From: Archangium sp.
GTDB taxonomy: Bacteria > Myxococcota > Myxococcia > Myxococcales > Myxococcaceae
Direction of reading: 5' to 3'
Length of the DNA stretch: 64,000 nucleotides
Assembly (NCBI GenBank): GCA_047600485.1
Contig: JASGKS010000001.1
Location: 6,976,259 to 7,040,258, forward strand
Of this stretch, positions 6,702 to 42,466 are shown one piece after another. The stretch's first letter is position 1. Each line of letters opens with the position of its first letter. The translations under genes and the position numbers were made by a program. The notes below the pieces were generated by a model that was not told the DNA's origin, did no database searches, and worked only from the letters and a program-made list of their open reading frames with translations.

Positions 6702-9700
6702 GTGCTTGCTTCCCTCCCCACCATGACCCTTCGTGACCTTCGACGCTTCTTCGTCGTCGTGTTGTCGCTGTTGGCGGTGCCCGCGCTCGCGCGTGATTGG
6801 TTCGTCAGAGAAGGCAGCAGCGGCAACGGCTCGCAAGCGAACCCGTTCGGAGATCCGTGGGAAGCGCTCGACAAGTGCGAAGCGGGAGACAACATCCACG
6901 TGGCGGCGGGCAAGTACTACGGCCAGCTCGACGGCGCGGTGTGGAAGCTCGCGTTCCCGCGCATCTCGCTCTACGGCGGCTACGACAAGGACTTCAAGAA
7001 GCGCGACCCGTGGACGAATCTCACCGAGCTCACGTTCAAGGCGGGCAGCAAGAACAAGCCGTGGAACAGCTCGCGCATCTCGACGGGTGACGACTACTCC
7101 GGCTCGCGCATCGACGGCTTCGTGTTCAACATGGAATCGCAGAACGACTACGACGACTCGGGCTCGCTCGATCAACGCAGCCGTCAGCCGACGCCGCTGG
7201 TCATCGATCAACCCGGCGTGGTCATCGCGAACAACATCATCGTCAACGCGTCGAGCGAGGCCATCTCGATTCGCCCCGGCGTCATCGTCGAGAACAACAT
7301 CATCGTGAACTCGTACTCGAGCGCCATCAAGATGACGCCCGGCACGACGCTGCGGAACGACACGAACACCAAGCCCGCCATCGTGCGCAACAACACCGTC
7401 GCCTTCACGTGGGACCCGAGCGAAGCGGGCACCGGCGGGCAGCGCGGCGCGGCGATTCAGTACTCGGGCGGTGGGTTGGTCATCGAAGGCAACCTGCTCA
7501 TGAACTCCGACAACCAGGGCGTCACGCTCAACGCGAAGCCCGAAGACCTGTCGCTCAAGAACAACACCTTCTTCCAGAACCTCTTCAGCAACGTGAAGTG
7601 GATGAAGCCGGTGCCGGTCATCATCGACGACGACACGATGGATGTGCTCGACGAGGTCGGCTTCAAGGCGGTCGCCGACAACGAGGTGAAGAACCCGAAG
7701 GCGAAGTTGCCGAAGGAATGGATGGACCAGTTCTCGCGCCGTCAGGGCGTGAAGCCGGGCCAGGTGAAGATGGACGAGTGGAACGAGCTGCGTCGCACGC
7801 TCGGCCTGCCGGTCATCGCCACGGGAGGAAAGGCGTACGAGGGCTTCGCTCCGGCGTGGAAGACGAAGGACGCGCTGGCCCTGCTCGACATCACCGCGGT
7901 GAAGACCGGCGCGCGGCGCAAGGCGCTCACCGTCGGCGCGTTCTCGGAAGCGGGCCCCGCGGCGGTGCAGCGCGACTACGTGAAGAGCGACGTGAAGCAG
8001 CTCGAGACGCCCGACGCGATGCTGGGCAAGGCGGTGATTCTCGTCGTCGGTCTCGGCCAGAGCACTGCGCTCACCTACGCCAAGATGGACGGAGCGACCG
8101 CCGACACGCACGACGCGACGTACCTGTTCGACACCAAGGGCGAGCAGAAGATCATCGGCGCGTACAAGAAGGGCTCCACCATCGCGCGCACGATGGACAA
8201 GTTCGCCAACAAGCGCCTCTCGAGCTTCGGCACGCCGCCGGCGTTGTTCGTCGCGAAGGGCGTCATCACCGCGACCAACATGGTGCCGCGCACGGGCATC
8301 GTGCTCGACAGCTTCGAGGAGCAGGAACTCTCCCCGCTCGACGCGATGGGCGCGCGCCCGAAGGGCCGTGACTGGTTCGTGCGCGCGGGCGCGAAGAACG
8401 GCGACGGCAGCAAGGAGAAGCCGTTCAAGGACCCGTATCAGGCGCTCGAGAAGGTCGAGGCGGGCGACTCGATTCACGTCGCCGAGGGCGAGTACACCGG
8501 CAAGCTGCGCGCGGCGAAGTTCGTCATCGACATGCCGTTCATCGCGCTGCTCGGTGGCTACGACGCCAACTTCACCGAGCGCGACCCGTGGAAGCACCCC
8601 ACCCTGCTGCGCTTCATTCGCGACGCGAAGAACGACTACGGGCAGGGCTACATCGTCGAGGGCGCGTTCGACCACCGCGGCACCATCGTCGACGGCTTCG
8701 TGTTCGATCGCCGCGACTACAACCTCTACCAGGACGACGGAGACCTGATGGTCGACCGCTCCAACCGCAGCGAGTCGGTGTGGCTCGCGTCGCCGGGCTC
8801 GGTGGTGCGCAACTGCACGTTCGTCAACGGAGCGACCGGCGCGCTGCTGATCAGCACCGCCTCGCTGGTCGAGAACAACGTGTTCATCAACCACGTCGGC
8901 GCCATCGTCACCGTGCGTCGCGGAGACGACAACACGCCCACGCTGGTGCGGAACAACACGCTGCTCTTCAGCTGGAACGAGAAGTTCGGCCAGGGCAACG
9001 TGACCACCGGCTACGGGCTCAAGTTCGACACGCAGTCGCGCGGTGTGGCCGAGTCCAACATCATCGCCTTCATCGACAACCACGGCATCGAGGTGTTCGG
9101 CGACCCGAACGACGTGTCCATCAACAACAACGTGTTCAGCCACAACCTGTGGTCGAACTACGAGACCTCTCCTTCGATGAAGTTCATCGACGACGCGACG
9201 ATGAGCCAACTGCCCGCCGCGGGGTTGAAGAGCGCGAACGGCAACGTGGTGCAGAACGTCGACCTGCCGCTCGATGCGAAGTGGTTCGACGTCTACACGC
9301 ACCGCACCGCGCCCGTGCCCGGCAAGGTGGCGATGGATGACTGGAATCAGCTGCGCGACATGATGGGGCTCAACCTCATCGCGACGGGCGGCAAGCCGGG
9401 CGAGGGCTTCGCGCCGATGTACGACTACAAGAAGGCGCTCACGCTCTTCCCGAAGAAGGAAATGAAGGCCGGAGCGAAGAAGACCGCGCTGAGCGTGAAG
9501 TTCGACGGCGTGGTGCGCGAGGACCCGAGCTTCACGTGGGACGACACCGATTGGGACACGCTCATCGCTGACCCCGCGAAGCTGGCGGGCAAGCGCTTCG
9601 CGGTGCGCGCGTCGATTCGCGGTGAAGACAACAAGTACCTCACGCCGGGCATCGACCAGGCTGCGTATGCGAGCTGGTACTTCATGAAGCCGCAGGACAA

Positions 9701-9869
9701 CGGTCGCGCGAAGAACGTGTACGTGAAGCGCGGCACGAAGTTCGAGCGCGCACTGCGCAACGCGAAGCCGCTCGGGCCGGGTGAGAAGGCCGTCGAGGTG
9801 TTCGTCATCAAGGGCACCGTGCAGGCCAACGGAGACATCGTCGCCGACGTCATCGTCAAAGAAGACTGA
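6702..9869 (+). CDS. Secreted protein with two tandem right-handed parallel beta-helix (DUF1565/pectate-lyase-like) halves
   Basis: Signal peptide present. Each half begins with RDWFVR(E/A)G..G.G(S).(A/K).PF.DP..AL.K.EAGD.IHVA.G.Y.G, followed by Asn-rich (NNxx) beta-helix repeats. The start may be Met at 6723. The antisense 1090-aa ORF is spurious. Confidence 0.6.
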   Translation: MLASLPTMTLRDLRRFFVVVLSLLAVPALARDWFVREGSSGNGSQANPFGDPWEALDKCEAGDNIHVAAGKYYGQLDGAVWKLAFPRISLYGGYDKDFKKRDPWTNLTELTFKAGSKNKPWNSSRISTGDDYSGSRIDGFVFNMESQNDYDDSGSLDQRSRQPTPLVIDQPGVVIANNIIVNASSEAISIRPGVIVENNIIVNSYSSAIKMTPGTTLRNDTNTKPAIVRNNTVAFTWDPSEAGTGGQRGAAIQYSGGGLVIEGNLLMNSDNQGVTLNAKPEDLSLKNNTFFQNLFSNVKWMKPVPVIIDDDTMDVLDEVGFKAVADNEVKNPKAKLPKEWMDQFSRRQGVKPGQVKMDEWNELRRTLGLPVIATGGKAYEGFAPAWKTKDALALLDITAVKTGARRKALTVGAFSEAGPAAVQRDYVKSDVKQLETPDAMLGKAVILVVGLGQSTALTYAKMDGATADTHDATYLFDTKGEQKIIGAYKKGSTIARTMDKFANKRLSSFGTPPALFVAKGVITATNMVPRTGIVLDSFEEQELSPLDAMGARPKGRDWFVRAGAKNGDGSKEKPFKDPYQALEKVEAGDSIHVAEGEYTGKLRAAKFVIDMPFIALLGGYDANFTERDPWKHPTLLRFIRDAKNDYGQGYIVEGAFDHRGTIVDGFVFDRRDYNLYQDDGDLMVDRSNRSESVWLASPGSVVRNCTFVNGATGALLISTASLVENNVFINHVGAIVTVRRGDDNTPTLVRNNTLLFSWNEKFGQGNVTTGYGLKFDTQSRGVAESNIIAFIDNHGIEVFGDPNDVSINNNVFSHNLWSNYETSPSMKFIDDATMSQLPAAGLKSANGNVVQNVDLPLDAKWFDVYTHRTAPVPGKVAMDDWNQLRDMMGLNLIATGGKPGEGFAPMYDYKKALTLFPKKEMKAGAKKTALSVKFDGVVREDPSFTWDDTDWDTLIADPAKLAGKRFAVRASIRGEDNKYLTPGIDQAAYASWYFMKPQDNGRAKNVYVKRGTKFERALRNAKPLGPGEKAVEVFVIKGTVQANGDIVADVIVKED

Positions 9870-10180
9870 GCCAACAGCAGGGAGGGTGGGTGTCGTCGGG
9901 GGCACGCTGAACGCGTGCTCGTTTCGCGCGTGCGGAGGTGCTCCCGAGCGAATTTCTGGCTGCGTCGCGCTGGCTGCGACGGGGTCGGGCTCGTTTCGGC
10001 TAGCCGGCTAGCCAATTCGGGACCGACGCCCCCCGCCCTGCCCGAAATTCGCCCGAAGCCGAGGGGCTGCCGGAGTCGTGCACCGCTCGGGAACCCGACC
10101 CCACTGCCGTTCCTCACGGCAGTTGGTGCGCTCGTTGATCAGTTCACGCGCTCGTTCCGCTTCGGCATGCTCCGCCCCGC

Positions 10181-26060: not shown

Positions 26061-29000
26061 TCACGAGCGACGGCGTCTCACGCCAAGCAGCGCGAGCGCG
26101 AGCCACGCCACGCTTGCGTCGAATGCAGTGCAGCCGCAGCCAGGTCGAACGTCGGAGCCTCCTCCGCCCGCACCGCCGCCGGTTTCCCCACCGCCGGTCG
26201 CGGTCCCGCCGCCCATCGTGCTGCCGCCTCCTGTTGCAGTGCCGCCTCCCGTCGCTGAGCCGCCGCCGGTCGCTGAGCCGCCGCCGGTCGAGCCGCCGCC
26301 GCCACCGACAACTGCTTCGCTCGCACAGGTCGCCGAGCAGCCGTCGCCGCTCATCTGATTTCCGTCGTCACACTGCTCGCCCGTCTGCACGATGGTGTCT
26401 CCGCAGCGCGCGAGGTTGCACGCGTTCGAGCAGGCGTCGTCGTTCAGCATGTTGCCGTCGTCGCACTGCTCGCCCGTCTGGACGATGGTGTCTCCGCAGC
26501 GCGCAGTCGTGCACGCGTTCGAGCAGTCGTCGTTGTTCACCATGTTCCCGTCGTCACACTGCTCGCCTGACTGAAGGATGGTGTCTCCGCAGCGCCGCAG
26601 GTTGCACGCGTTGGAGCACGAGTCGTCGTTCACGCCGTTGCCGTCGTCGCACTGCTCGGTGCCTTGCACGAACGTGTCGCCGCAGCGCGCGACCGTGCAT
26701 GCGTTGGTGCACGCATCGATATTGCTGGTGTTGCCGTCGTCACACGGCTCGGTGCCCTGCACGAAGCCGTCGCCGCAGGTCGCGAGTGCGCAGACGTTGG
26801 TGCACGCGTCTTCGTTCACGGTGTTCGCGTCGTCGCAGGCCTCGGGAGGTTGCGTGAAGCCGTCACCACACCGCGCGAGCGTGCACGCGTTGGTGCACGC
26901 GTCTTCGTTCACCGAGTTCGCGTCGTCGCACTGCTCGCCTGTTTGCCGAATTCCATCTCCGCAGCGCGGGAGCGTGCACGCGTTGGTGCAGCCGTCGTCG
27001 TTGACCATGTTTCCGTCGTCGCACTGCTCGGCGCCCTGGCGGAATCCGTCGAGGCACATCGCGGTGACGAGGGTCGAGACAGGAGAGCCGGCGATGGGGC
27101 CCTGGTTCAACGCCACGATGGTCGCCGTCCACGTTCCAGCCGAGGTCGGCGTGTAGACCACGTCGTAGGTGCCGTCGTTTCGATCGACGATGGTGGCGCC
27201 GAAGGTGGTGGTGCCGTCGGTGGCGATGGCTCCGAAGAGCGAAGCGAAGCCGCTGGCGTGCACGTCTTCGCCGCAGCTGCCGCGCGACTGCATGCGCACC
27301 GTGACGGTCTGCCCCAGAATCGCGGTGCTCGGCGTCGGCGGCAGCACCATGCTCGCGGCGGTCGGAATGCTCGAGCGGACGCTCACGTTCGACACCACGG
27401 CCGACGTCGGTCCTGCGAAGCGCCCCGACGCGACAGCGAGCAAGGCGCCTCGCGCGAAGAGCGACTCCATCTCTGACTGAAGAAGCTCGACCTCGAGCTC
27501 GGGCGCGTAGAACGGTTCGCCCGGCACGATGATGTACGTGCGCAGCCAGCCCTTCGCAGGACCCGTGCGCGTCTCGTCACGAGTCCAGGTGATGCGAATC
27601 GGTGTCGTCGCGGCGAGCTCGGTGCCGAACGTCGACTGACACGCAGACCACCACGGCCAGGCGCAGTAGCGCTCGCGCAGGACTCGCGCCCACCCGCGCT
27701 GTGCGACCGCGTGATTCGCGCTGTTCGGCAGCGGCCCTCGGGTCATGACGGCGACGTGGCCACCGATGGGATCGCCGCCTCCGCTGCTGACGTCGTCGAA
27801 CTCGATCGCGAGGCTGTTCGGAATGTTCTCGTAGCCCAGCACCCCACTGTCGACCGGGAGCGGCAGCGCGTCGGCGAGCACGACCGAGATGCCGGAGGCC
27901 GTGGAAGAAGTGAGCACCGTGAAGTCGAGCTGAAAGTCGTGCGACACGTCGATGCGATCGTTGAAGAAGACCGCGTTCGGGAGCAGGCGACCATCAAAGC
28001 CACCATCCAGGCCTGCACCGGGGCCGGCGTCGTATGCAGGGCCGGCAGCGAGCTCAAAGCCGCCATCGGTGAGCACGGTCGCGTGGCCGAGCAACGTCTG
28101 CGGTGGCGCAATGGTTCTCGTCGGTGCCGAGCAGGCCGGAGGAATCGCGTCGACGAGCTCGAACTGGAACTCGGGCTCGTGCAGTCCGCGATGCGCGTAG
28201 AAGAGATCGACCGGGTAGTTGCGACCCGTCGCGAGCCCGTTCGCCGCGGCGAAGGCATCGAGGGGAACCGCGAGCGTCTGGCGCGAATGCACACCGCCGA
28301 GGTCGGCCAGCAACTTGCCGTTCCAGAAGACCCACAGGTCGTCGGCCGACGCGAAATACAACGTGGTGCCCGGGACCCAGGGCATCTGCTCGTGGAGCTC
28401 CCACGTGAAGTTGCGATTGGGATTCGGCTCGGCCGCAGATGGAGTGCGTTGATCGAGAGGGTAGAAGTGCGAGCTCGTGAATCGCGTCACGCCGGTGGTG
28501 CTCACGTTTCCGCTGAGCACGAGGTCGAGTGGCCGTACCAGCGTCGCTCCTGCGTCGGGAGAATCGTCCCACCATGCGTTGAAGCTGCTCGGCGAGGAGA
28601 CGGTGGTGAGCGTGGTCGGCTGAAACACCGGCTTGTTGTTCGCGCCGAGCGTGGAGGCGACGAACGCCGGCACGTCATCTCCGTTCGCGGACGAGAAGTC
28701 GGCTTGCGTCGTGCGGAAGTCGCGGAACGTCCCGGTGACGGTGCGAATCGGCCCCGGCGTGATGGCGAAGGTCGCGCAACAGTTGCCGAAGCTCGAAGCG
28801 CTGAGCCCGCTGACCGTGAAGCACGCGAAGTTCGCGGTCGAGAACGTGGGAGCGCCATAGTTCACGACGGGCCGACCGGGGCTCCACGTCACCAGCCAAC
28901 CTGCATCGGCGTTGGTCGAGAGCGGCGTGATGACCATTCCAGTGGGGAGCGGCGTGTTGCTGAGCGTCAGGGTGTCGCCCCCGGCTCGATTCGAACGCGC

Positions 29001-29867
29001 CGTGAGCAGCAGAGCGGCCTCGAGTCCCTGCGGAGTGTTCGCCTGCTCGCCACAGCCAGCGGTGAAGACCACTGAGGTTGGGGGCGACGCGACGACGTTG
29101 AAGATCAGATCGAGCGGAACCACCGAACCACCACTCGCGGTCAGCAACACCTGCACCGAGGCTTCGCCCAACGTGGTCGGAGTCCACTGCAGCAGGCCCG
29201 TCGGACTGATGGTCATGCCAGCAGGCGCGGCGACCGCCAGACCCGAGCTCGCGATGGGAGCGAACGACAGACTCACCGTCTCGTTCGGAGGCGCGGTGAC
29301 CGGCAGGGAGATGCTGTTCGACTGGTTCTGCACCAGGCCCATTCGAAGCACCGCGGTGGTGCGCGCCGAACGCGGCGACGAGAGCAGCAACGCGCTGCGC
29401 ATCAGGAACGGGCGAGTCGAATTCCCATCTTGCAGTGGCGTGACACGACAGCAGTCGTTCACCTCGATGGGCGTCGAGCTCGCGGTGAGAGGAACCACCA
29501 CCTGCAGCGTCGCGTTGGCGTACAGGCGGTCATTGGCGGCGTCGGTGGCAACCACCTGGAGAGGAATGGTCTGCACCGTCGCGCCGCCGTTGATGCGGAG
29601 CGAGAAGTCGTTGATGAGCGCTCCGGGGTTCGCGTTGGCGCCAGCCGGCGTGTAGGTCGCGCTCCGCCGCAGGGCGAGCTGCACGTTCACGTTGAAGCGC
29701 GCCTGGGTCGACGAGACGAACGTCGTGTCACGCACCCAGTCGATGGTTCCGCCAGCGAAGCGGGTCGCCAGGGCAGGGCACGCGAAGAACAGCACGGCGA
29801 CCACGACCAGTCGAAGAGCGCGCACGGCGGCGCAGCCTAGCAAGGCGGTCGAGACGACGATGGCCAA
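26061..29867 (-). CDS. Large secreted protein: PA14/fibro-slime-like domain + 9 Myxococcus cysteine-rich repeats + Gly-rich linker + MYXO-CTERM-like tail
   Basis: Motif DDLWVFWNGKLLADLGGVHS (PA14/fibro-slime-like). Nine repeats RCGDG(F/I)xQxGEQCDDGNxxNxDxCxNAC. Then GGGSATGGGS repeats. The protein ends GCGCTAFDASVAWLALALLGVRRRRS (Cys motif + TM + basic tail). Confidence 0.7.
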   Translation of the reverse strand: MAIVVSTALLGCAAVRALRLVVVAVLFFACPALATRFAGGTIDWVRDTTFVSSTQARFNVNVQLALRRSATYTPAGANANPGALINDFSLRINGGATVQTIPLQVVATDAANDRLYANATLQVVVPLTASSTPIEVNDCCRVTPLQDGNSTRPFLMRSALLLSSPRSARTTAVLRMGLVQNQSNSISLPVTAPPNETVSLSFAPIASSGLAVAAPAGMTISPTGLLQWTPTTLGEASVQVLLTASGGSVVPLDLIFNVVASPPTSVVFTAGCGEQANTPQGLEAALLLTARSNRAGGDTLTLSNTPLPTGMVITPLSTNADAGWLVTWSPGRPVVNYGAPTFSTANFACFTVSGLSASSFGNCCATFAITPGPIRTVTGTFRDFRTTQADFSSANGDDVPAFVASTLGANNKPVFQPTTLTTVSSPSSFNAWWDDSPDAGATLVRPLDLVLSGNVSTTGVTRFTSSHFYPLDQRTPSAAEPNPNRNFTWELHEQMPWVPGTTLYFASADDLWVFWNGKLLADLGGVHSRQTLAVPLDAFAAANGLATGRNYPVDLFYAHRGLHEPEFQFELVDAIPPACSAPTRTIAPPQTLLGHATVLTDGGFELAAGPAYDAGPGAGLDGGFDGRLLPNAVFFNDRIDVSHDFQLDFTVLTSSTASGISVVLADALPLPVDSGVLGYENIPNSLAIEFDDVSSGGGDPIGGHVAVMTRGPLPNSANHAVAQRGWARVLRERYCAWPWWSACQSTFGTELAATTPIRITWTRDETRTGPAKGWLRTYIIVPGEPFYAPELEVELLQSEMESLFARGALLAVASGRFAGPTSAVVSNVSVRSSIPTAASMVLPPTPSTAILGQTVTVRMQSRGSCGEDVHASGFASLFGAIATDGTTTFGATIVDRNDGTYDVVYTPTSAGTWTATIVALNQGPIAGSPVSTLVTAMCLDGFRQGAEQCDDGNMVNDDGCTNACTLPRCGDGIRQTGEQCDDANSVNEDACTNACTLARCGDGFTQPPEACDDANTVNEDACTNVCALATCGDGFVQGTEPCDDGNTSNIDACTNACTVARCGDTFVQGTEQCDDGNGVNDDSCSNACNLRRCGDTILQSGEQCDDGNMVNNDDCSNACTTARCGDTIVQTGEQCDDGNMLNDDACSNACNLARCGDTIVQTGEQCDDGNQMSGDGCSATCASEAVVGGGGGSTGGGSATGGGSATGGGTATGGGSTMGGGTATGGGETGGGAGGGGSDVRPGCGCTAFDASVAWLALALLGVRRRRS

Positions 29868-29902: not shown

Positions 29903-30598
29903 TCAGGGCTGCACGACGGCCGGGAAGTTCGCCGAGCCCTGAATCGTCGCGGTGCACGAGGTCGCGACTTCGCACTTCGTCACCATCGAGTTCACCAGCC
30001 AGCTCAACGTCACCGTGCCGTTCGCGCTCACCGTCTGCGTCGGAACCGGAGTGGTGAGCGTCGTGCCGAGCGAAGTGCCTTCCGCCCACGTCGCCTCTGC
30101 TCCACCGTTCGGCGTGAACGAGACCTTGTAGCTGCTGGTGCCCTGAGACGGCGGAGAGGTCAGCCAGCGCAGCATGTAGTTCGAGCGCAGCGTCGCGGGC
30201 GGCGAGTCGGCGATGGCGGTGCCGAGCTCGAGCGTCGTGACCGTCATGTTCATGGTCGTCACTTCATCGGTGAAGATGATCTCTCGCGGCGTCGACTTCA
30301 TGTCGGGCGTGATGAGGAAGCCGGGGAACTGGCACTTGTCGGCTTCGTTCATCTGCATCGGGTCGAAGCTGCCGGCCGAGGCCGCGACGTTCTGACCGTC
30401 GAGCGTGGCGCGCAGGTTCTTCACCGCGCCGCACGCCGTCTTGGTGTTGTCGTACGTGAGAATCACCTGGAGCGCTCCGCCGTTGCGGCGCTGAGCGGTG
30501 ATGACCGGGCTGATCAACTTGCCCAACTCCGGCGTGGCGGGACCACAGCCAGCGAGGAGCGCGAGCGTCACGAAGGCAGCGAGAGCACGTGAATTCAT
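29903..30598 (-). CDS. Lipoprotein, unknown function
   Basis: Signal peptide/lipobox LALLAGC. Ser/Thr-rich. Confidence 0.5.
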   Translation of the reverse strand: MNSRALAAFVTLALLAGCGPATPELGKLISPVITAQRRNGGALQVILTYDNTKTACGAVKNLRATLDGQNVAASAGSFDPMQMNEADKCQFPGFLITPDMKSTPREIIFTDEVTTMNMTVTTLELGTAIADSPPATLRSNYMLRWLTSPPSQGTSSYKVSFTPNGGAEATWAEGTSLGTTLTTPVPTQTVSANGTVTLSWLVNSMVTKCEVATSCTATIQGSANFPAVVQP

Positions 30599-30619: not shown

Positions 30620-31570
30620 TCAGCGCGTTCCGACCACCAGTTCCGCGATGGCGCGACTGATGCGGTGCCCGAGCTTCTGCTCGACGTCGAGGTAGATGGG
30701 CGAGCTGTTCAGCTCGAGGAACACGAAGCGCCCGTCAGTCGTGCGCTTGATGTCGATGCCCGCGAAGCGCAGTCCGCATTTCCTTGCGGCGTCTCGACAG
30801 TGTTGGACCACCGCGCTCGGCAGCTCGACTTCTTCGTAGCGCGCGTCACCCGACGAGTAGACGGGGTCGTCGCGAAAATCGAGGTGCTGCGACGGAGTGC
30901 GAATCGCGACGCACGAGACGATTTCGTCTCCCGCGAGCATCACGCGGAGATCGTCACCGTCGATGCGCTCTTGAAAGATGACCGGCGAATTGCGGACCGC
31001 GTCGAGCTCGTCGGCGCTCTCGAGGTCGGCGAGGCGACGGGTGATGGCTCCGCCCATGAGCGGCTTGAAGATGACGTCGTGCGTGTCCTTCGCGAATGCG
31101 CGCACCGCGTCGGGGTCGTTGCTGATCAACGTGCGGGGCACGCTCGCGCCGACGCTGCGCAGCACGTTGAGCTGAAACGGTTTGTACTGGAGCACGCTCC
31201 CGGCTTGCGGCGGGTTGATCAGCCGCGCGCCTCGGTCCTGCAACGCGAGGAGCCACGCGACGAAGTACGACGCGCGCTCGCGTTCCTGCATGTAGCGGAT
31301 GAACCAGTCTTCGTAGAGCACGAGCTCCTGGTCTTCTTCGCGTTCGAACGACGGCGCGTACGGAGCGGGGATGCTGCGCAGGTAGAAGCCGCGCACGTCG
31401 GTGAGGTCGACGCCGCGGTAGAGGAATTTGCCGTCGAGCTCGCTGAGCGGAAGACCTTCGTCGAGCGCGTCGCTGCGGATCAGCACGTCGTCTGCGCCGA
31501 GCGCGCGCACTTCCTTCGCCACGGCGTGGACCTGGAGATCATCGTCAGTGCCAAAGATGCCGACCCGCAT
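30620..31570 (-). CDS. ATP-grasp family peptide ligase (RimK-like; candidate graspetide macrocyclase)
   Basis: RimK/glutathione-synthetase-like ATP-grasp architecture (~320 aa); specific catalytic motifs were not confirmed from memory. Start taken at MRVGIFG. Divergent from the repeat-peptide gene. Confidence 0.75.
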   Translation of the reverse strand: MRVGIFGTDDDLQVHAVAKEVRALGADDVLIRSDALDEGLPLSELDGKFLYRGVDLTDVRGFYLRSIPAPYAPSFEREEDQELVLYEDWFIRYMQERERASYFVAWLLALQDRGARLINPPQAGSVLQYKPFQLNVLRSVGASVPRTLISNDPDAVRAFAKDTHDVIFKPLMGGAITRRLADLESADELDAVRNSPVIFQERIDGDDLRVMLAGDEIVSCVAIRTPSQHLDFRDDPVYSSGDARYEEVELPSAVVQHCRDAARKCGLRFAGIDIKRTTDGRFVFLELNSSPIYLDVEQKLGHRISRAIAELVVGTR

Positions 31571-31640
31571 GACGTGTTCGCGGGGCAAATGTACTCTGCG
31601 CGCGCGTCATTTCTCTCGTCGTCATCAAGGAGCGCTCCAC

Positions 31641-32177
31641 ATGAAGGTGAAGGGTCACAAGAGCCTGCCGAAGTACGAGCTCGGGAAGAACAAGAAGAAG
31701 GAAGAGAAGAAGATGACGACGATGGCGCTCGGCGAAGAGAGCGCGAAGAAGCCCGGCAAGCCGGGTCAGGTCACGACCAAAGCGCTCGGCGAAGAGGGCA
31801 ACGCGAAGCCGGGAAAGCCGGGCGGGACGTTCACCACGATGGCGGTTGGTGAGGAGAGCAACACCAAGCCGAAGCCTCCGGGCGGCACGTTCACCACGAT
31901 GGCGGTGGGTGAAGAGGGCGGTGCTCCGAACAAGCCCGGCAAGCCTCCGACGATGACCACGCTCGCGGTCGGTGAAGAGGGCGGTGCGCCGAACAAGCCG
32001 GGGAAGCCCGACGTCACGACGCTCGCCGTCGGTGAAGAGGGCAACGACAAGCCGACTAAACCCGGGAAGCCTGACGTCACGACGCTCGCCGTCGGTGAAG
32101 AAGGCAACAAGCCGAAGCCGCCGGGTGGAACGTTCACCACCATGGCGCTCGGTGAAGAGGGCACAGGCTCGCGCTGA
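31641..32177 (+). CDS. Graspetide (omega-ester-containing peptide) precursor with 8 tandem TTxxxGEE core repeats
   Basis: RBS-like aaggag 10 nt upstream of ATG 31641. Lys-rich leader MKVKGHKSLPKYELGKNKKKEEKK. Eight roughly 20-aa units (TTMALGEES, TTKALGEEG, TTMAVGEES, TTMAVGEEG, TTLAVGEEG x3, TTMALGEEG) separated by KPGKPG-type linkers. The ORF-track entry 31428..32177 is the same frame with an upstream false start. Confidence 0.65.
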   Translation: MKVKGHKSLPKYELGKNKKKEEKKMTTMALGEESAKKPGKPGQVTTKALGEEGNAKPGKPGGTFTTMAVGEESNTKPKPPGGTFTTMAVGEEGGAPNKPGKPPTMTTLAVGEEGGAPNKPGKPDVTTLAVGEEGNDKPTKPGKPDVTTLAVGEEGNKPKPPGGTFTTMALGEEGTGSR

Positions 32178-32191
32178 GCGGCGGTTTTGGT

Positions 32192-32232
32192 CCACCCTCA
32201 CCCCGACCCTCTCCCTCGCGGGAGAGGGGGCT
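32192..32232. repeat. Dispersed palindromic intergenic repeat, copy 1
   Basis: caccctcaccccgaccctctccctcgcgggagaggggg containing a 9-bp perfect stem (ccctctccc/gggagaggg) with a 4-nt loop. Same element at 42426..42466 and inverted at 35086..35123. Confidence 0.8.
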
Positions 32233-35070: not shown

Positions 35071-37556
35071 GTGTGGTCGAAGGCAAAGCCCCCCTCTCCC
35101 GCCAGGGAGAGGGTCGGGGTGAGGGTGAACCGCACCACAATCTCAGCGCGCGATTCGTCGGAGGGGCGCGCAACACGTCGTGGCGCTCGCCGCTGCTCCT
35201 CGCGGCGTTCGTCTTCGCCGGCTGTCAGTGCACTCCGCCAGATCTCTCGCAGCAACGCTTCGCGTGCACGACGCTCGCCGATTGCGCCGATGGCCACGAC
35301 TGCATCGACGGCGAGTGTCGCAGTCCCTCGAGCAATGGAGACGGCGGAGCGACCGGAGGCGGCACAGCGACCGGAGGCGGCGCAGCGACCGGCGGCGGCG
35401 CAGCAACTGGTGGCGGCGCAGCGACGGGTGGTGGCGCAACGACTGGCGGCGGCGCTGCAACCGGAGGCGGCGGCGGCGCGACTGGCGGCGGATCCACAAC
35501 CGGTGGTGGCGGTGGTGCCACTGGTGGTGGCTCAACGACCGGAGGCGGCGGCTCGACCGGTGGCGGAGGCGGCACCTGCACTCCCGAAAGCGACCCCGAC
35601 TTCTGCACGCGACTCGCAAAGAACTGCGGCAGCGTGACGGCGAACGACAACTGCTCCGTCTCGCGCACCGCGACCTGCGGCACGTGCAACGGCGGAAACT
35701 TCTGCGGCGGCGGCGGCGCAGCGAACGTCTGCGGCCCCTGTCAGCCCGAGAACGACGTCGGCTTCTGCGGCCGCCTCGCGAAGAACTGCGGCCAGCTCAC
35801 CGCCAACGACAACTGCAACGTCCCGCGCACCGCGATGTGCGGCAGCTGTACTTCACCGCTCACCTGCGGCGGCAGCGTGACGCCGAACGTGTGCGGTGGC
35901 GGCCCCATCTGCACCGCCGACTGGTGTTGGAGCCGCCCGCAGATTCAAGGCAACCATCTGCACGACACCGCCGTCGTCTCAGCGACCGACGTGTGGGCCG
36001 TCGGAGACATCGGCACGATTCTCCACTGGGACGGCACGGCCTGGGGCAAGGCGCCGAACACCTTCGGCGATGATCTCTTCGCGGTCTGGGCCAACGGCAC
36101 GAGCAACGCGTGGGCGGCCGGGCGTGACGGCACCATCCTCCACTGGAATGGAAACGACTGGTCTCCGCTCGGAAACCTCGCCACCAACCAGACCATCTTC
36201 GGCCTGTGGGGCAGCTCGACGAACGACGTGTGGGCCGCGGGCACTGGCGGCGTGCTCCGCCGGTGGAACGGCTCGACGTGGGTCGCGGCGACGAGCAACA
36301 CCGCCAACACCTTCTACGGCCTCGGTGGCTCAGCGACGAACGACGTGTGGGCCGTCGGCGAAGGCGGAATGATTCAGCACTTCAACGGCACCGCGTGGAG
36401 CAACGTCACGAGCCCCACCACCAACGAGCTCGACGGCGTGTGGGCGAGCAGCACGACCAACGCGTGGGCCGTCGGTGACAACGTCATCCTGCGGTGGAAC
36501 GGCACGATGTGGACCGACGTGACGCCGACCACGTCGACTGGGTTCTTCGGCGTGTGGGGCACCGGACCCAACGACGTGTGGGCCGTCGGCGATCGCCTCA
36601 CGATGCGCTTCAACGGCACGTCGTGGAACGCAGTGGGCACTCCGGTCGCGAGTGAGTGGCACGGCGTGCACGGCGCGGGCAGCGAAGTGTTCGCGGTCGG
36701 AATCGGCGGAGCGACGATGCGGTGGACCGGAATGGCGTGGACCGAGCTCACCGCGGGTCCGTTCGAGACGCTCTACGGCCTGTTCGCGTTCTCGACGACC
36801 GACGTTTGGGCTTCAGGCTCGCGCGGAACGATTCTGCACTTCGACGGCACGACGTGGACACGCTCCAACTCCGGTACGACGAACGACCTCAACGCGCTGT
36901 GGGGCTCGGCGCCGAACAACATCTGGGTCGCGGGCGACAACGTGATGAAGCGGTGGAACGGAACGTCGTGGACCACCCAACCCGCTCCGCCGCGGCAGAT
37001 CTACGACCTGCACGGACTCTCGGCGAACGACATCTGGGCGTCGGGCGTCGACGGTTTGATGATGCACTACAACGGCACGAGCTGGTCGGTGGTGAACACC
37101 GGCATGTCGACCACCAACGACTACAACACCGTGTGGGCCCTCGCCGCGAACGACGTCTGGGCGCTCGGTGACAACGGGCTCGCGGGCCACTGGGACGGCA
37201 TGAACTGGAGCGTGGTGGCGCCGTTCATCACCACCAATTCCGTCTACGCGATGTCGGGCAACGCGGGCACGCTCATCGGCGTCGGCCCGGGCGCGACCAT
37301 CGTGAAATTCTCGGGAGGCACGTGGACCGACGTGTCCGTCGGCGGCAGCGATTACTACGGCGTCACGATGGTCACTCCGAGTGAGAGCTACATCGTCGGT
37401 GGCGGCGTCTCGATGCGCTACGACACCGTCTCTCCGCAGCAATACCTCGACCTGCCGAACTACTACGGGTTCTACAACATCGCCGCCATTGCACAGCCCA
37501 GCGGCCCCGTGCTCTTCACCGTCGGCACCGCAGGCGGGGTCCTGCAACACAACTGA
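35067..37556 (+). CDS. Lipoprotein with (ATGGG)n Gly-rich linker, duplicated Cys-rich module and beta-propeller-like W-x-G repeats
   Basis: Lipobox FVFAGCQ. GGATGGGTATGGGAATGGG... repeats. Two copies of C...DFCTRLAKNCG..TANDNC.V.RTA.CG.C. At least 15 repeats of type GTILHWDGTAW / VWAVG / LRWNGTMW. The true start is uncertain because the repeat element lies in the 5' region. Confidence 0.6.
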   Translation: MSVVEGKAPLSRQGEGRGEGEPHHNLSARFVGGARNTSWRSPLLLAAFVFAGCQCTPPDLSQQRFACTTLADCADGHDCIDGECRSPSSNGDGGATGGGTATGGGAATGGGAATGGGAATGGGATTGGGAATGGGGGATGGGSTTGGGGGATGGGSTTGGGGSTGGGGGTCTPESDPDFCTRLAKNCGSVTANDNCSVSRTATCGTCNGGNFCGGGGAANVCGPCQPENDVGFCGRLAKNCGQLTANDNCNVPRTAMCGSCTSPLTCGGSVTPNVCGGGPICTADWCWSRPQIQGNHLHDTAVVSATDVWAVGDIGTILHWDGTAWGKAPNTFGDDLFAVWANGTSNAWAAGRDGTILHWNGNDWSPLGNLATNQTIFGLWGSSTNDVWAAGTGGVLRRWNGSTWVAATSNTANTFYGLGGSATNDVWAVGEGGMIQHFNGTAWSNVTSPTTNELDGVWASSTTNAWAVGDNVILRWNGTMWTDVTPTTSTGFFGVWGTGPNDVWAVGDRLTMRFNGTSWNAVGTPVASEWHGVHGAGSEVFAVGIGGATMRWTGMAWTELTAGPFETLYGLFAFSTTDVWASGSRGTILHFDGTTWTRSNSGTTNDLNALWGSAPNNIWVAGDNVMKRWNGTSWTTQPAPPRQIYDLHGLSANDIWASGVDGLMMHYNGTSWSVVNTGMSTTNDYNTVWALAANDVWALGDNGLAGHWDGMNWSVVAPFITTNSVYAMSGNAGTLIGVGPGATIVKFSGGTWTDVSVGGSDYYGVTMVTPSESYIVGGGVSMRYDTVSPQQYLDLPNYYGFYNIAAIAQPSGPVLFTVGTAGGVLQHN
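35086..35123. repeat. Dispersed palindromic repeat, copy 2 (inverted orientation)
   Basis: cccctctcccgccagggagagggtcggggtgagggtg is the reverse complement of the 32192 element, with one substitution in the loop. Confidence 0.8.
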
Positions 37557-37619: not shown

Positions 37620-38687
37620 ATGGCATCCGCTCCCGTCATCGCTTCCGTCGCTCGCGCGCTCCCGCCGCACTACCACTCGCAGGCAGAGCTCTCGCAGGGC
37701 CTTCAGGACTACTGGCGCGAAGGCGGCCACCACTTCAACAAGAGCCGCGTCGATTCGTTGCACGCCTCGGTGCAGGTGCGCGGGCGGCACCTCGCGATTC
37801 CGATGGCCGACTACCCGCCGCTCAACACCTTCGAGAAGCGAAACCAGGTGTGGATTCGCGAGGCGGTGAAGCTCGGTGAACAGGCCGTGCGCGACGCGGT
37901 GAAGAAGGCCGGGCTCTCGCTGCAAGACATCGACGCGTTGTGCTTCACGAGCATCACCGGTCTCGCGACGCCGAGCATCGACGCGCGATTGGTGAACAAG
38001 CTCGGGCTGCGCAACGACGTGAAGCGGCTTCCGATTTTCGGACTCGGCTGCGTCGCGGGAGTGGCTGGCACCGCGCGCGTGAGCGACATGCTGCGCGGTT
38101 TTCCCGGGCACAACGCGGTGCTGCTCTCGGTCGAACTGTGCAGCCTCACCGTGCAGCGCGATGACCTCTCGCTCTCGAACATCATCGCGTCGGGGCTGTT
38201 CGGCGACGGCGCTTCGGCAGTCGTGGTGCGCGGAGGCGACGCTCCCGGCGATGGACCGCGCGTGCTCGCGAGCGAATCGGTCTTCTACCCAGACACCGAA
38301 GACGTGATGGGTTGGGACTTTCTCGATTCGGGTTTCAAGGTCGTGCTCTCGGCGCGCGTGCCGGAGATGGTGCTCACCAACGTGCGCAACAACGTCGACG
38401 GTTTCTTGAGCAAGCACGGCGTGAAGCGCAGCGACATCAAGCACTGGGTCGCGCACACCGGCGGGCCGAAGGTGCTCGAGGCGTTCGAGCAGGCACTCGA
38501 GCTTCCACCCGACGCGCTCGCGCGAAGCTGGGAGTCGCTGCGCTCGGTCGGAAATCTCTCGTCGTCGTCGGTGCTCTACGTGCTCGGTGACCTGCTCGAC
38601 TCGGGCGTCGCGAAGAAGGGCGACGTCGGCCTGATGATGGCGATGGGCCCGGGCTTCTGCTCGGAGCTGGTGCTGCTGAAATGGTGA
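37620..38687 (+). CDS. Type III polyketide synthase (chalcone/stilbene synthase family)
   Basis: Catalytic Cys in FGLGCVAGVAG, His in WVAHTGGPKVL, Asn in VGNLSSSSVLYVL. Length 355 aa. Confidence 0.9.
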   Translation: MASAPVIASVARALPPHYHSQAELSQGLQDYWREGGHHFNKSRVDSLHASVQVRGRHLAIPMADYPPLNTFEKRNQVWIREAVKLGEQAVRDAVKKAGLSLQDIDALCFTSITGLATPSIDARLVNKLGLRNDVKRLPIFGLGCVAGVAGTARVSDMLRGFPGHNAVLLSVELCSLTVQRDDLSLSNIIASGLFGDGASAVVVRGGDAPGDGPRVLASESVFYPDTEDVMGWDFLDSGFKVVLSARVPEMVLTNVRNNVDGFLSKHGVKRSDIKHWVAHTGGPKVLEAFEQALELPPDALARSWESLRSVGNLSSSSVLYVLGDLLDSGVAKKGDVGLMMAMGPGFCSELVLLKW

Positions 38688-39208
38688 ACTCGCTCTGGCT
38701 CTACACGGCGCTCATCGCGCTGGTGGGCGTGGAGCGGCTCGTCGAACTTCGACTCTCGGTGCGCAACGCGAAGTGGGCGTTCGAGCGCGGCGCGAAAGAG
38801 TACGGTCAGGGCCACTACCCGTTCATGACCGTGTTCCACACCGCGTTCCTCGTGGCGTGCGTGGCGGAGCCGTGGCTCTTCGACCGGCCCTTCGTTTCGC
38901 CGTGGGGCTTCCTCGCGCTCGCGTTCGCCGTCGGCGCGCAGCTGTTGCGGTACTGGGCCATCACCACGCTCGGCACGCGGTGGAACACGCGCGTCATCGT
39001 GCTGCCGAAGGGAGAGCAGTTGGTGAGCGGCGGGCCGTACCAATTCGTGCGGCACCCGAACTACGTCGCGGTGTGCGTCGAGCTGCTGGCGTTGCCGCTC
39101 ATTCACGGAGCGTTCGTGACCGCGGTGGTCTTCACGATTGGAAATGCGCTGCTCTTGCGCGTGCGCATCAAGGTCGAGGAGACGGCGCTCGGTCTGCGCG
39201 CGGAGTAG
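38681..39208 (+). CDS. Isoprenylcysteine carboxyl methyltransferase (ICMT)-family membrane methyltransferase
   Basis: Multi-TM protein with C-terminal GGPYQFVRHPNYVAVCVELLALPL motif typical of the ICMT/PEMT family. Overlaps the PKS stop by 7 nt. Confidence 0.8.
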   Translation: MVNSLWLYTALIALVGVERLVELRLSVRNAKWAFERGAKEYGQGHYPFMTVFHTAFLVACVAEPWLFDRPFVSPWGFLALAFAVGAQLLRYWAITTLGTRWNTRVIVLPKGEQLVSGGPYQFVRHPNYVAVCVELLALPLIHGAFVTAVVFTIGNALLLRVRIKVEETALGLRAE

Positions 39209-39210
39209 GA

Positions 39211-39671
39211 CGTGGCGCATGGCGATTCTCTTCCGTGCGGCGGTGCGAGCTGACCTTCCTGCGATGTTGGCGCTGCTGGCTGACGACACGCTGGGCACCA
39301 AGCGCGAGGTGAGCAGCGAGGACCCGCGCTACCTCGCCGCGTGGGAAGCGGTGACCACCGACGCGAATCAACACCTGCTCGTCGCCGAGCTCGACGGCGC
39401 GGTGGTGGGCATGATGCAGATGACGCGCACGCCCGGCCTCTCTCGCGCAGGAGCGTGGCGCGCGACGCTCGAATCGGTGCGCATTCGCAGCGACCTCCGC
39501 GGGCGTGGGTACGGCGGGCAGTTCATCGAGTACGCGATTGAGTTGGCGCGCACCCTCGGGTGCCGGTTGGTGCAGCTCACCAGCGACGTGCGACGCGAAG
39601 AAGCGCATCGGTTCTACGGGCGACTCGGCTTCGTCGCGTCGCACACCGGCTTCAAGCTCGAGCTCAAGTGA
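39211..39671 (+). CDS. GNAT family N-acetyltransferase
   Basis: RIRSDLRGRGYGGQFIEYAIELAR acetyl-CoA binding motif (R/Q-x-x-G-x-G/A). Start taken at MAILFRAAV (39211) rather than the ORF-track 39138. Confidence 0.75.
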
Positions 39672-40762
39672 GAGTCGACGTCGCCATCGTCGGAGCGGGT
39701 CCCGCCGGCCTCGCCACGGCCATCGGCGCTGCGACGCGCGGGCTGACGGTGCACGTGTTCGACAAGCAGGGCTTTCCCATCGACAAGGCGTGCGGTGAAG
39801 GGCTGATGCCGTCGGGCTTGTCGGCGCTCGAGCGGCTCGGCGCGCTGAAGTTTCTCGACCGTGCTGATTCGGCGGAGTTCCACTCCATTACCTATGTGCA
39901 GGAGAGCGGCGTGCGCGCGGTGGGCACGTTGCCCGCTCCCGGTGGGCTCGGCGTGCGTCGCCTCGCGCTGTCCGCAGCGTTGCGCGCGCGCGCGGTCGAA
40001 GCCGGAGTCGTGCTGCACGAGAAGACCGGCGTGCGCACACATCGCCACGTCATCGACGGCGTCGAGCTCGAGACGGAGAGTGAAGTCGTGCACGCGCAGG
40101 TGCTCATCGCGGCCGACGGGTTGAACTCGCTGTGCCGGCAACGCGAAGGGCTCGCTGGGCCGGTGGCGAAACATCGGCGGTTCGGTGTGCGGCGGCATCT
40201 GCGCGTGAAGCCGTGGGCCGCGACGGTCGAGGTGCATTTCGCGGAAGGCGTCGAGGCGTACGTCACTCCCGCGGGCGTCGAGCGCGTGGGCGTCGCGTTT
40301 CTGTGGGACGCGTCGAGCGCGGTGAGTGAAGAGAGCGGCTTCGATGCGCTGCTCGCGCGTTTCCCCGAGCTCGCTGAGCGCGTGCGCGGAGCTGACTTCG
40401 ATTCGTCGTCGCGCGGCGCGGGCCCGTTGATGCAGCACGTGCAGCGGCGCGTCGCACCGCGGTTCGCGCTGGTGGGAGATGCCGCCGGCTACGTCGATGC
40501 CATCACCGGTGAAGGGCTGACGCAGGCGTTCGACGCGTCGGAAGCGCTGGTCAGTGTGTTGCCCGAAGTCATCGCGGCGCGCGGAGCGGTGGAAGCGTTC
40601 GGTGCGTACGAGCGCGCGGCCGAGAAGTCTTTCGTCAGGTACGCGCGGCTCGCGAACTCGCTGCTGTGGCTCGCGCGACGTCCCCAGTTGCGGAAGTTCG
40701 TCGTCGCGTCGCTGGCGAAGAGCCCTGCCCTGTTCGAGCGAGTCCTCGCGTCGGCGCTGTAG
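39668..40762 (+). CDS. FAD-dependent oxidoreductase/monooxygenase (geranylgeranyl-reductase-like family)
   Basis: GTGA overlap with the GNAT stop. N-terminal dinucleotide-binding motif VDVAIVGAGPAGLATA...VHVFDK. GD motif LVGDAAGYVDAITGEG. Confidence 0.8.
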   Translation: MRVDVAIVGAGPAGLATAIGAATRGLTVHVFDKQGFPIDKACGEGLMPSGLSALERLGALKFLDRADSAEFHSITYVQESGVRAVGTLPAPGGLGVRRLALSAALRARAVEAGVVLHEKTGVRTHRHVIDGVELETESEVVHAQVLIAADGLNSLCRQREGLAGPVAKHRRFGVRRHLRVKPWAATVEVHFAEGVEAYVTPAGVERVGVAFLWDASSAVSEESGFDALLARFPELAERVRGADFDSSSRGAGPLMQHVQRRVAPRFALVGDAAGYVDAITGEGLTQAFDASEALVSVLPEVIAARGAVEAFGAYERAAEKSFVRYARLANSLLWLARRPQLRKFVVASLAKSPALFERVLASAL

Positions 40763-42425: not shown

Positions 42426-42466
42426 GTTCACCCTCACCCCGACCCTCTCCCTCGCGGGAGAGGGGG
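42426..42466. repeat. Dispersed palindromic intergenic repeat, copy 3
   Basis: caccctcaccccgaccctctccctcgcgggagaggggg between convergent genes. Preceded by the AT-rich palindrome gtaagtaaaagcttac. Confidence 0.8.

Follow-up and report, generated by a model that had tools for sequence, protein, structure and literature searches.

Graspetides are compact and engineerable protease inhibitors. The core motif of group 2 is TTxxxxEE, which usually occurs in tandem, and the characterised members of this group are plesiocin, RcpA, and Gra-5. In plesiocin, the ATP-grasp ligase PsnB installs two nested Thr-Glu esters in each core of its precursor, with Thr32-Glu37 formed first and Thr31-Glu38 second. 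Plesiocin inhibits elastase (Ki 16 nM) and chymotrypsin (7.5 nM) and does not inhibit trypsin, and a single excised repeat is weaker. The potency of plesiocin rises with the number of cyclised motifs. Changing one loop residue of plesiocin changes its target protease, and the engineered variant Psn-LLLR gains trypsin inhibition; its name is read here as Arg in place of the position-3 Leu in the fourth core. The present analysis concerns a related locus in a 64-kb stretch of DNA from an Archangium sp. metagenome-assembled genome (MAG). This whole stretch is called the window, and coordinates are positions in it. The locus comprises a ligase gene and a divergent gene for a repeat precursor, and is read, with a probability of roughly 80%, as a two-gene module for a group 2 (plesiocin-type) graspetide. 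The reading draws on the gene structure, on homology of the ligase to PsnB in sequence and predicted fold, on the core-binding and nucleotide-binding residues, on the core motif, and on the pairing of the two genes in related genomes. The genes and the region between them are as follows.

30620..31570 (-): candidate PsnB-like macrocyclase of the ATP-grasp type; the ATG at 31570 gives 316 aa, and the frame is open to a TTG at 31588 (322 aa)
31571..31640 (no strand): divergent intergenic region, 70 bp, which holds the precursor Shine-Dalgarno sequence AAGGAG at 31627-31632
31641..32177 (+): predicted graspetide precursor gene, 178 aa, 18.15 kDa (18,152 Da), consisting of a leader and eight cores

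The open reading frame (ORF) of the ligase spans 30620..31588 (-) when read from the TTG, and the product of the internal ATG begins MRVGIFG. The ATG start agrees with NCBI MFT3712253.1 (P0121; 100% identity, its MAG being labelled Archangium sp.) and with the N-termini of 26 homologues. An earlier note on this DNA had placed a 322-aa ligase 70 bp from the precursor. The divergent ATP-grasp gene stands, but the 70-bp distance belongs to the 316-aa ATG start, while the 322-aa TTG start lies only 52 bp away.

The nearest relative of the ligase is PsnB, both by sequence and by fold. A phmmer search of the Protein Data Bank (PDB) places PsnB (7drm) first, with an E-value of 7e-44 and 153 bits over residues 9-306, followed by PruB (5e-21, 78 bits), MdnC (1e-13, 54 bits), and RimK (5e-6, 29 bits). 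When the ligase is aligned with PsnB, 36% of 284 positions are identical. The AlphaFold2 model of the ligase, made with 27 homologues, has a mean pLDDT of 86.6 and a pTM of 0.85. In a Foldseek comparison of this model with the PDB, ranks 1-14 are all PsnB (E 1e-27, TM 0.81); MdnC, AMdnB, PruB, CdnC, and MdnB come next, and then ArgX, LysX, RimK, and Ddl at E ~1e-16. The ligase does not cluster with RimK or with cyanophycin synthetase. The top three NCBIfam models are all ATP-grasp maturases of peptides that are ribosomally made and then modified after translation (RiPPs). The best of them is TIGR04187 GRASP_SAV_5884 at 127.9 bits (curated cut-off 350), and the models TIGR04185 and TIGR04184 for MvdC/MvdD, microviridin maturases homologous to MdnB/MdnC, score 81.9 bits (cut-off 425) and 80.6 bits (cut-off 475).

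The residues R72, R101, and R213 of PsnB correspond to R65, R97, and R209 of the ligase (316-aa numbering) and are invariant in 27 homologues. The family alignment of 27 sequences also has an invariant DFR loop (D231-F232-R233) and invariant K169, D273, E286, and N288; the last four residues presumably serve nucleotide and Mg binding, as in ATP-grasp enzymes generally. In the PsnB study, R213 contacts the first-reacting Glu, and R72 is common to all graspetide ligases. For R101, conservation is reported in group 2a enzymes only, a criterion that comes from the PsnB preprint alone. The leader pocket of PsnB (Y171/I193/L196/V201/F203) is conservatively kept as F/L/V/V/F, and R181 is kept.

The precursor consists of the following parts.

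31641..31712 (+): leader, residues 1-24, MKVKGHKSLPKYELGKNKKKEEKK
31662-31688 (+): likely ligase-recognition motif SLPKYELGK, residues 8-16, at the site of the leader consensus of relatives
31716..31739 (+): core 1, TTMALGEE
31773..31796 (+): core 2, TTKALGEE, with Lys at the protease-specificity position
31833..31856 (+): core 3, TTMAVGEE
31893..31916 (+): core 4, TTMAVGEE
31956..31979 (+): core 5, TTLAVGEE
32016..32039 (+): core 6, TTLAVGEE
32079..32102 (+): core 7, TTLAVGEE
32136..32159 (+): core 8, TTMALGEE
Precursor residues, first half: MKVKGHKSLPKYELGKNKKKEEKK-M-core1-SAKKPGKPGQV-core2-GNAKPGKPGGTF-core3-SNTKPKPPGGTF-core4-GGAPNKPGKPPTM-core5
Precursor residues, second half: core5-GGAPNKPGKPDV-core6-GNDKPTKPGKPDV-core7-GNKPKPPGGTF-core8-GTGSR

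The translation agrees with the earlier description of a 178-aa ORF with a Lys-rich 24-aa leader, eight TTxxxGEE cores, and KPG linkers. The linkers are of the KPGKPG, KPKPPGG, and NKPGKP types and have 11-13 residues. Of the 178 residues, 44% are Gly (31), Lys (27), or Pro (21). At the DNA level, Tandem Repeats Finder detects degenerate tandem units that recur every 60 and 63 bp with 76-83% matches. The pattern TT...GEE occurs eight times in all six frames of the window, every time in the precursor; 50 triplet-shuffled windows averaged 0.04 matches, and none had more than 2. The comparison with the plesiocin precursor PsnA2, MSKNENNKKQLRDLFIEDLGKVTGGKGPYTTLAIGEEDPITTLAIGEEDPDPTTLALGEEDPTTLAIGEE, relies on an OCR copy of the paper supplement, in which minor errors are possible. 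The cores of PsnA2 are three of TTLAIGEE and one of TTLALGEE, and the window cores differ from them only at positions 3 (M/K/L) and 5 (L/V). In essence, the window shares the octapeptide of PsnA2, TTLA[I/L]GEE. When PDB chains were searched by phmmer, neither the precursor nor a leader-plus-core fragment gave a match, the PsnA2 peptide chains included.

The coding evidence for the repeat ORF comes from its own codons and from its relatives. The Shine-Dalgarno sequence lies 8 nt upstream of the precursor ATG. Among the eight cores, codon differences comprise 73 synonymous and 34 non-synonymous changes, and the latter are confined to core positions 3 and 5. When 188 cores of the window and 22 related loci (23 sources) are pooled, Ala is found at position 4 in 185 and Gly at position 6 in 184, and four different codons are used for each; the search pattern had left both positions free. 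At position 3 the family has M (78), L (57), K (32), Q (8), and R (8), and the window has Met in four cores, Leu in three, and Lys in one. Homologues of the precursor are called as genes in other assemblies, as a 57-aa gene in L032 and as STAUR_8142. Judged from these codon and conservation patterns, the repeat ORF is a real gene under purifying selection, in line with its pairing with the ligase.

Relatives were gathered in two ways. A scan with the ligase as query, over one genome per species from 185,579 bacterial and archaeal species, gave 28 loci (labelled L001 and so on), and a protein search with the precursor as query gave 177 proteins at E <= 1e-3, of which 120 were listed. The ligases of the 28 loci have identities of 54% to 84%. 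The loci belong nearly all to Myxococcaceae or Archangiaceae MAGs or to Hyalangium, with one labelled as cyanobacterial and one as Pseudomonadota. The precursor lies upstream of the ligase and divergent from it in 25 of the 28. No precursor was seen in L017 and L018, and L003 is too short to tell. Among the 25, L019 has a single intact core and one degenerate core, and L020 is frameshifted between leader and core. When the neighbours of the window locus were searched by tblastn and all ORFs of the 28 loci were clustered against each other, no third conserved gene was found. The neighbours in other loci are unrelated by subclade, among them a K+ transporter, a GAF-PAS histidine kinase, and a uracil-DNA glycosylase. 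Conserved synteny in the 28 loci is limited to the ligase and the divergent precursor. The earlier plesiocin-type interpretation is supported by this pairing, by the rank of PsnB, and by the core sequence, and every in silico check proposed for refuting it turned out in its favour.

The core number in relatives ranges from 2 (Hyalangium and kin) to 17 (L015), and the eight cores of the window fall in the middle of this range. The window belongs to a subclade with ligase identities of 70-87%, represented mostly by MAGs, whose arrays are expanded to 5-17 cores. Among the 120 precursor matches listed, 19 have at least eight strict cores, and the maximum is 13. The 177 proteins come from Planctomycetota, Thiothrix, Alphaproteobacteria, and others, and in all of them TTxAxGEE repeats follow different N-terminal regions. 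The supplement of Makarova et al. 2022 contains a Moorea producens precursor of 298 aa with at least 12 strict cores (cluster 10071), and Stigmatella aurantiaca STAUR_8142 with the leader SFIQYELP and two cores (cluster 2725). The product had earlier been called unusually multivalent, which is fair against characterised plesiocin with its four repeats, but not against these relatives. The graspetide class, the leader type, and the high repeat number are not new, because they are already known from plesiocin, RcpA, and Gra-5 or catalogued in Makarova et al. 2022. The literature searched contains no biochemical characterisation of this myxobacterial clade. The locus adds a new member, with an apparently unannotated precursor gene, to the known group 2 graspetides, in a subclade with expanded arrays.

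Several relatives depart from the regular array. In L001, the closest relative (precursor 9313-10149, -), four cores lack the Gly before EE, three being TTKALHEE and one TTLALNEE. In L020 (precursor ~8702-10061, -), the frameshift splits the leader from the core. These variants, together with the degeneration in L019, suggest a rapid turnover of the arrays. Other N-terminal regions are found outside the clade. A twin-arginine-like signal (RRDFLRRLVVAGLSS...) precedes the repeats in 22 of the 120 listed homologues (P0002, P0005, P0006, P0017, and others; in Planctomycetota, Stieleria and Roseiconus). This suggests that the twin-arginine translocation pathway exports an already cross-linked peptide in those homologues, a route that is absent from the myxobacterial clade. 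Repeat cores are also fused to a WXG100/ESAT-6-like domain (PF06013, P0003), to Nif11 leaders (PF07862), and to PF14343 (P0003, P0034, P0113, P0084, P0103, P0117). The array of cores thus seems to serve as a movable cassette, carried on different recognition or export domains.

The leader contains 10 Lys among its 24 residues, and none of its 10 Lys or Arg residues is followed by Pro. In the 28 relatives the leader consensus is [F/L]-x-x-Y-[E/A]-[L/V/M]-[P/G], and the N-terminus M-x-V-[K/R]-G-P is also conserved. MAFFT places SLPKYELGK opposite DLFIEDLGK of PsnA2, with L and [D/E]-L-G-K in common and Pro at the place of Phe15. According to the PsnB study, LFIEDL is the PsnB-binding element of the PsnA2 leader, and Phe15 is critical for binding.

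For the ester connectivity, the order of reaction, protease inhibition, export, and leader removal, we infer a course in which chemistry and inhibition follow plesiocin. The 178-aa precursor would be translated in the cytoplasm, and the ligase, probably a dimer like PsnB, would dock on the leader motif SLPKYELGK via its hydrophobic pocket. In each core, the side-chain carboxylate of the first Glu (position 7) would be phosphorylated at the expense of ATP, and the hydroxyl of the second Thr (position 2) would attack this activated Glu to form the inner ring. The outer ring would follow, joining the second Glu (position 8) to the first Thr (position 1). Each core hairpin would carry two nested macrolactone rings, with up to 16 esters in total and a loss of 288 Da from 18,152 Da. 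Residue 3 of each hairpin would fit the specificity pocket of a protease. The product would be a ~15 kDa string with eight serine-protease inhibitor heads, most of them directed against chymotrypsin-, elastase-, and subtilisin-type enzymes and one, with Lys, against trypsin-type enzymes. Protease inhibition is suggested here by the identity of the cores with those of plesiocin. Position 3 is taken to set the specificity because Psn-LLLR gains trypsin inhibition; a naturally mixed-specificity inhibitor is therefore a reasonable inference from the mixed Met, Leu, and Lys residues at this position.

A further proposal, which is tentative and rather doubtful, is that the product of this clade is a multi-specific, polycationic, and linker-protected inhibitor made without dedicated maturation machinery, with the leader trimmed by ordinary proteases. 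Heads with different specificity residues (Met, Leu, and Lys, with Gln and Arg in relatives) would be joined on one chain, a combination that was built by hand in Psn-LLLR. The linkers of the window have Lys followed by Pro in 15 of 16 cases, and the corresponding counts in 12 full-length relatives are 7 of 104 in leaders and 153 of 184 in linkers. The Lys-Pro bond is cut poorly by trypsin. The core region comprises 18 Lys and Arg and 19 Asp and Glu residues, and esterification of 16 Glu would shift its net charge from -1 to +15. By the same arithmetic, plesiocin would go from -12 to -4. A charge of about +15 could make the product stick to anionic cell surfaces or matrix. Valency and specificity would be adjusted by a rapid gain and loss of the 60- or 63-bp units, of which close relatives have 2-17 copies.

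Several points weigh against the plesiocin-type reading or against this extension of it. The ligase falls under the curated cut-off of every NCBIfam graspetide model and is therefore a relative of PsnB rather than a member of a curated equivalog. R192 of PsnB is replaced by Glu. The leader lacks both LFIEDL of PsnA2 and its Phe15, with Leu9, Tyr12, and Leu14 as candidates to fill the pocket. With Met or Lys at position 3 and with Val at position 5, window cores depart from the plesiocin cores, which have Leu at position 3 and Ile or Leu at position 5. No route for export or leader removal is encoded nearby. The Lys-Pro pattern could be a mere by-product of a KPG-repeat spacer, with no role in protease resistance.

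The alternative that survives best, though it remains improbable, is a structural or adhesive role in place of protease inhibition: after modification, the repeat protein would be a cross-linked polymer of the extracellular matrix, comparable to corallotide, with the linkers as its functional part. Corallotide, a large repeat graspetide from Corallococcus, has collagen-like properties, and the high share of Gly, Lys, and Pro (44%), the size of ~15 kDa, and the net charge of +15 after esterification would suit such a material; the protease-inhibitor role of the clade is itself drawn by analogy. However, the cores hardly differ from those of plesiocin, which inhibits proteases at nM level with every hairpin as one inhibitor unit, and the variation is concentrated at core position 3, which is the specificity position by Psn-LLLR. 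In the family, the cores are conserved and the linkers vary freely in length and sequence, some consisting only of GG or GGG. This is the opposite of what a linker-based function predicts, and the protease-inhibitor reading is preferred.

Less likely still is an enzyme that also makes Lys-Glu amide (lactam) links through the linker Lys or the Lys of core 2, with a topology unlike that of plesiocin. Graspetide ligases of other groups form lactams and the precursor offers 27 Lys, but PsnB, the characterised enzyme of the clade, forms only Thr-Glu esters within TTxxxxEE. The 16 core Glu are matched by 16 core Thr, and the linker Lys keep no fixed place with respect to the cores from one family member to another.

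There is next to no chance that the ligase is a RimK/LysX-type alpha-L-glutamate ligase, which would add Glu to the C-terminus or to the EE motifs instead of closing rings. The Pfam domains are generic (RimK, GSH-S_ATP, and ATP-grasp_3), and homologues are annotated as 'RimK family alpha-L-glutamate ligase' or 'glutathione synthase/RimK-type ligase'. RimK and LysX, however, rank far below all graspetide ligases: the RimK sequence match is 5e-6 against 7e-44 for PsnB, and the fold match is 1e-16 against 1e-27. The model RimK_fam TIGR00768 scores 48.6 bits (cut-off 143.4), and PRK10446 scores 27.8 bits (cut-off 331). The core-binding Arg triad of PsnB is invariant, and a TTxAxGEE precursor adjoins the ligase in 25 of the 28 loci.

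Hardly credible, too, is an untranslated repeat ORF, either a chance or antisense frame in GC-rich DNA or a decaying pseudogene, in spite of the frameshift in its relative L020, its low codon GC, and its absence from a protein collection, since it has a Shine-Dalgarno sequence at ideal spacing, an excess of synonymous core differences (73 against 34), a start M-x-V-[K/R]-G-P and a leader motif conserved in 28 relatives, and homologues called as genes. The GC content at third codon positions (GC3) of the precursor is 0.79, the lowest among the neighbouring genes, because of its many AAG, GAA, and ATG codons. Protein presence was checked by exact match in a collection of 15 billion proteins, where the exact 178-aa precursor is not found and the adjacent ligase and lipoprotein from the same MAG contig are present. 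Automatic annotation has therefore probably overlooked the precursor gene.

The surroundings of the module contain no further candidate component. By Pfam analysis of 17 neighbouring ORFs (18.5-42.4 kb), no protease, C39-ABC exporter, acetyltransferase, or second ATP-grasp gene occurs within ~10 kb on each side. The earlier remark that no protease or transporter is adjacent is correct over this range, and the lack of linked export or leader-removal genes is typical of the clade.

A lipoprotein gene at 29903-30598 (-) lies 22 nt downstream of the ligase. It encodes 231 aa with the lipobox LLAGC and has no Pfam match. Its family comprises 19 proteins, all in this myxobacterial clade, and adjoins the ligase in the closest relatives L001, L004, L006, and L032; in L029 no ligase is nearby. 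The lipoprotein was considered as a component of the system and rejected, because the family is also found apart from any ligase (L029).

The intergenic region gave no hit in a scan for a sigma-70 consensus promoter. The corresponding regions of many relatives (L002-L016) share a block ATT[A/G]TCG and, ~15-20 nt further on, GTTGCC, and both blocks are weakly recognisable at 31571-31640 in the window. They may represent a promoter or operator.

The window also contains a repetitive extragenic palindromic (REP)-like palindrome, CACCCCGACCCTCTCCC-N4-GGGAGAGGG, in three copies with all specified bases identical, against 0 expected by chance.

32199-32228 (+): REP-like copy
35092-35121 (-): REP-like copy
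42435-42464 (+): REP-like copy

The first copy starts 22 nt past the precursor stop codon, and its predicted fold has a 9-bp GC stem, CCCTCTCCC/GGGAGAGGG. This downstream hairpin may form the 3' end of the precursor transcript or stabilise its mRNA.

Two other features lie in the neighbourhood. At 37620-40762 (+), the gene for a type III polyketide synthase (37620-38687) is followed by those for an ICMT-family methyltransferase (38681-39208) and for an FAD-dependent monooxygenase (39560-40762), and we take these three adjacent genes to resemble Srs-type alkylresorcinol/alkylquinone operons. The gene at 26061-29867 (-) encodes a secreted protein of 1268 aa that has eight Cys-rich DUF4215 repeats (CGDG..Q.GEQCDDGN) and one filamin repeat and whose C-terminal tail is rich in Gly.

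The locus leaves knowledge of the graspetide class unchanged. The window locus and about 25 related loci form a natural series with 2 to 17 repeats, mixed specificity residues, and two-gene biosynthesis, which is convenient material for multivalent or multi-specific inhibitors. The series could address how one ligase handles many cores from one leader, and what role such inhibitors have in predatory myxobacteria. The locus also illustrates an unannotated RiPP precursor gene beside a ligase that is labelled only as 'ATP-grasp domain-containing protein'.

Among the known systems, the microviridins (MdnA, MdnB, MdnC) are related in having ATP-grasp macrocyclases of the same overall fold, a ribosomal precursor, and activity against serine proteases. 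They differ in having two ligases, one for esters and one for amides, a single cage-like tricyclic core, and another leader, while a single ATP-grasp gene was found within ~10 kb on each side in the window. RcpA/RcpB from Rheinheimera, characterised in 2024, resembles the locus in that TTxxxxEE is esterified by a lone ATP-grasp enzyme and the product inhibits proteases. In contrast, RcpA has one canonical and two variant motifs, its cluster contains a C39-peptidase ABC exporter, and its leader ends in GG, none of which is present in the window.

Closer to the window are the cultured myxobacteria. Stigmatella aurantiaca STAUR_8142 has the leader type (SFIQYELP) and the core TTLAVGEE in common with it, and the ligases of Hyalangium, Archangium, and Vitiosangium are 63-67% identical to the window ligase. 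Unlike the window, the relatives from cultured strains have only 2 cores and leaders of ~40 aa.

The closest characterised system is PsnA2/PsnB of Plesiocystis pacifica. In both, a lone ATP-grasp ligase adjoins a tandem-core precursor, and the module contains no second ligase, acetyltransferase, or transporter. The window ligase has the same predicted fold as PsnB at 36% identity and keeps Arg72, Arg101, Arg213, and the DFR loop. The leader motif is SLPKYELGK (family [F/L]xxYE[L/V][P/G]K) instead of LFIEDLGK, and, compared with PsnA2, the window precursor has no GG motif at the end of its leader. The linkers of the window have 11-13 residues and are rich in Lys, Pro, and Gly, whereas those of PsnA2 have 2-4 residues and are acidic and of DP type. 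After esterification, the core region would have a net charge of +15 in the window and of -4 in plesiocin. PsnA2 has four cores, all with Leu at position 3, whereas the window precursor has eight, with Met, Leu, and Lys.

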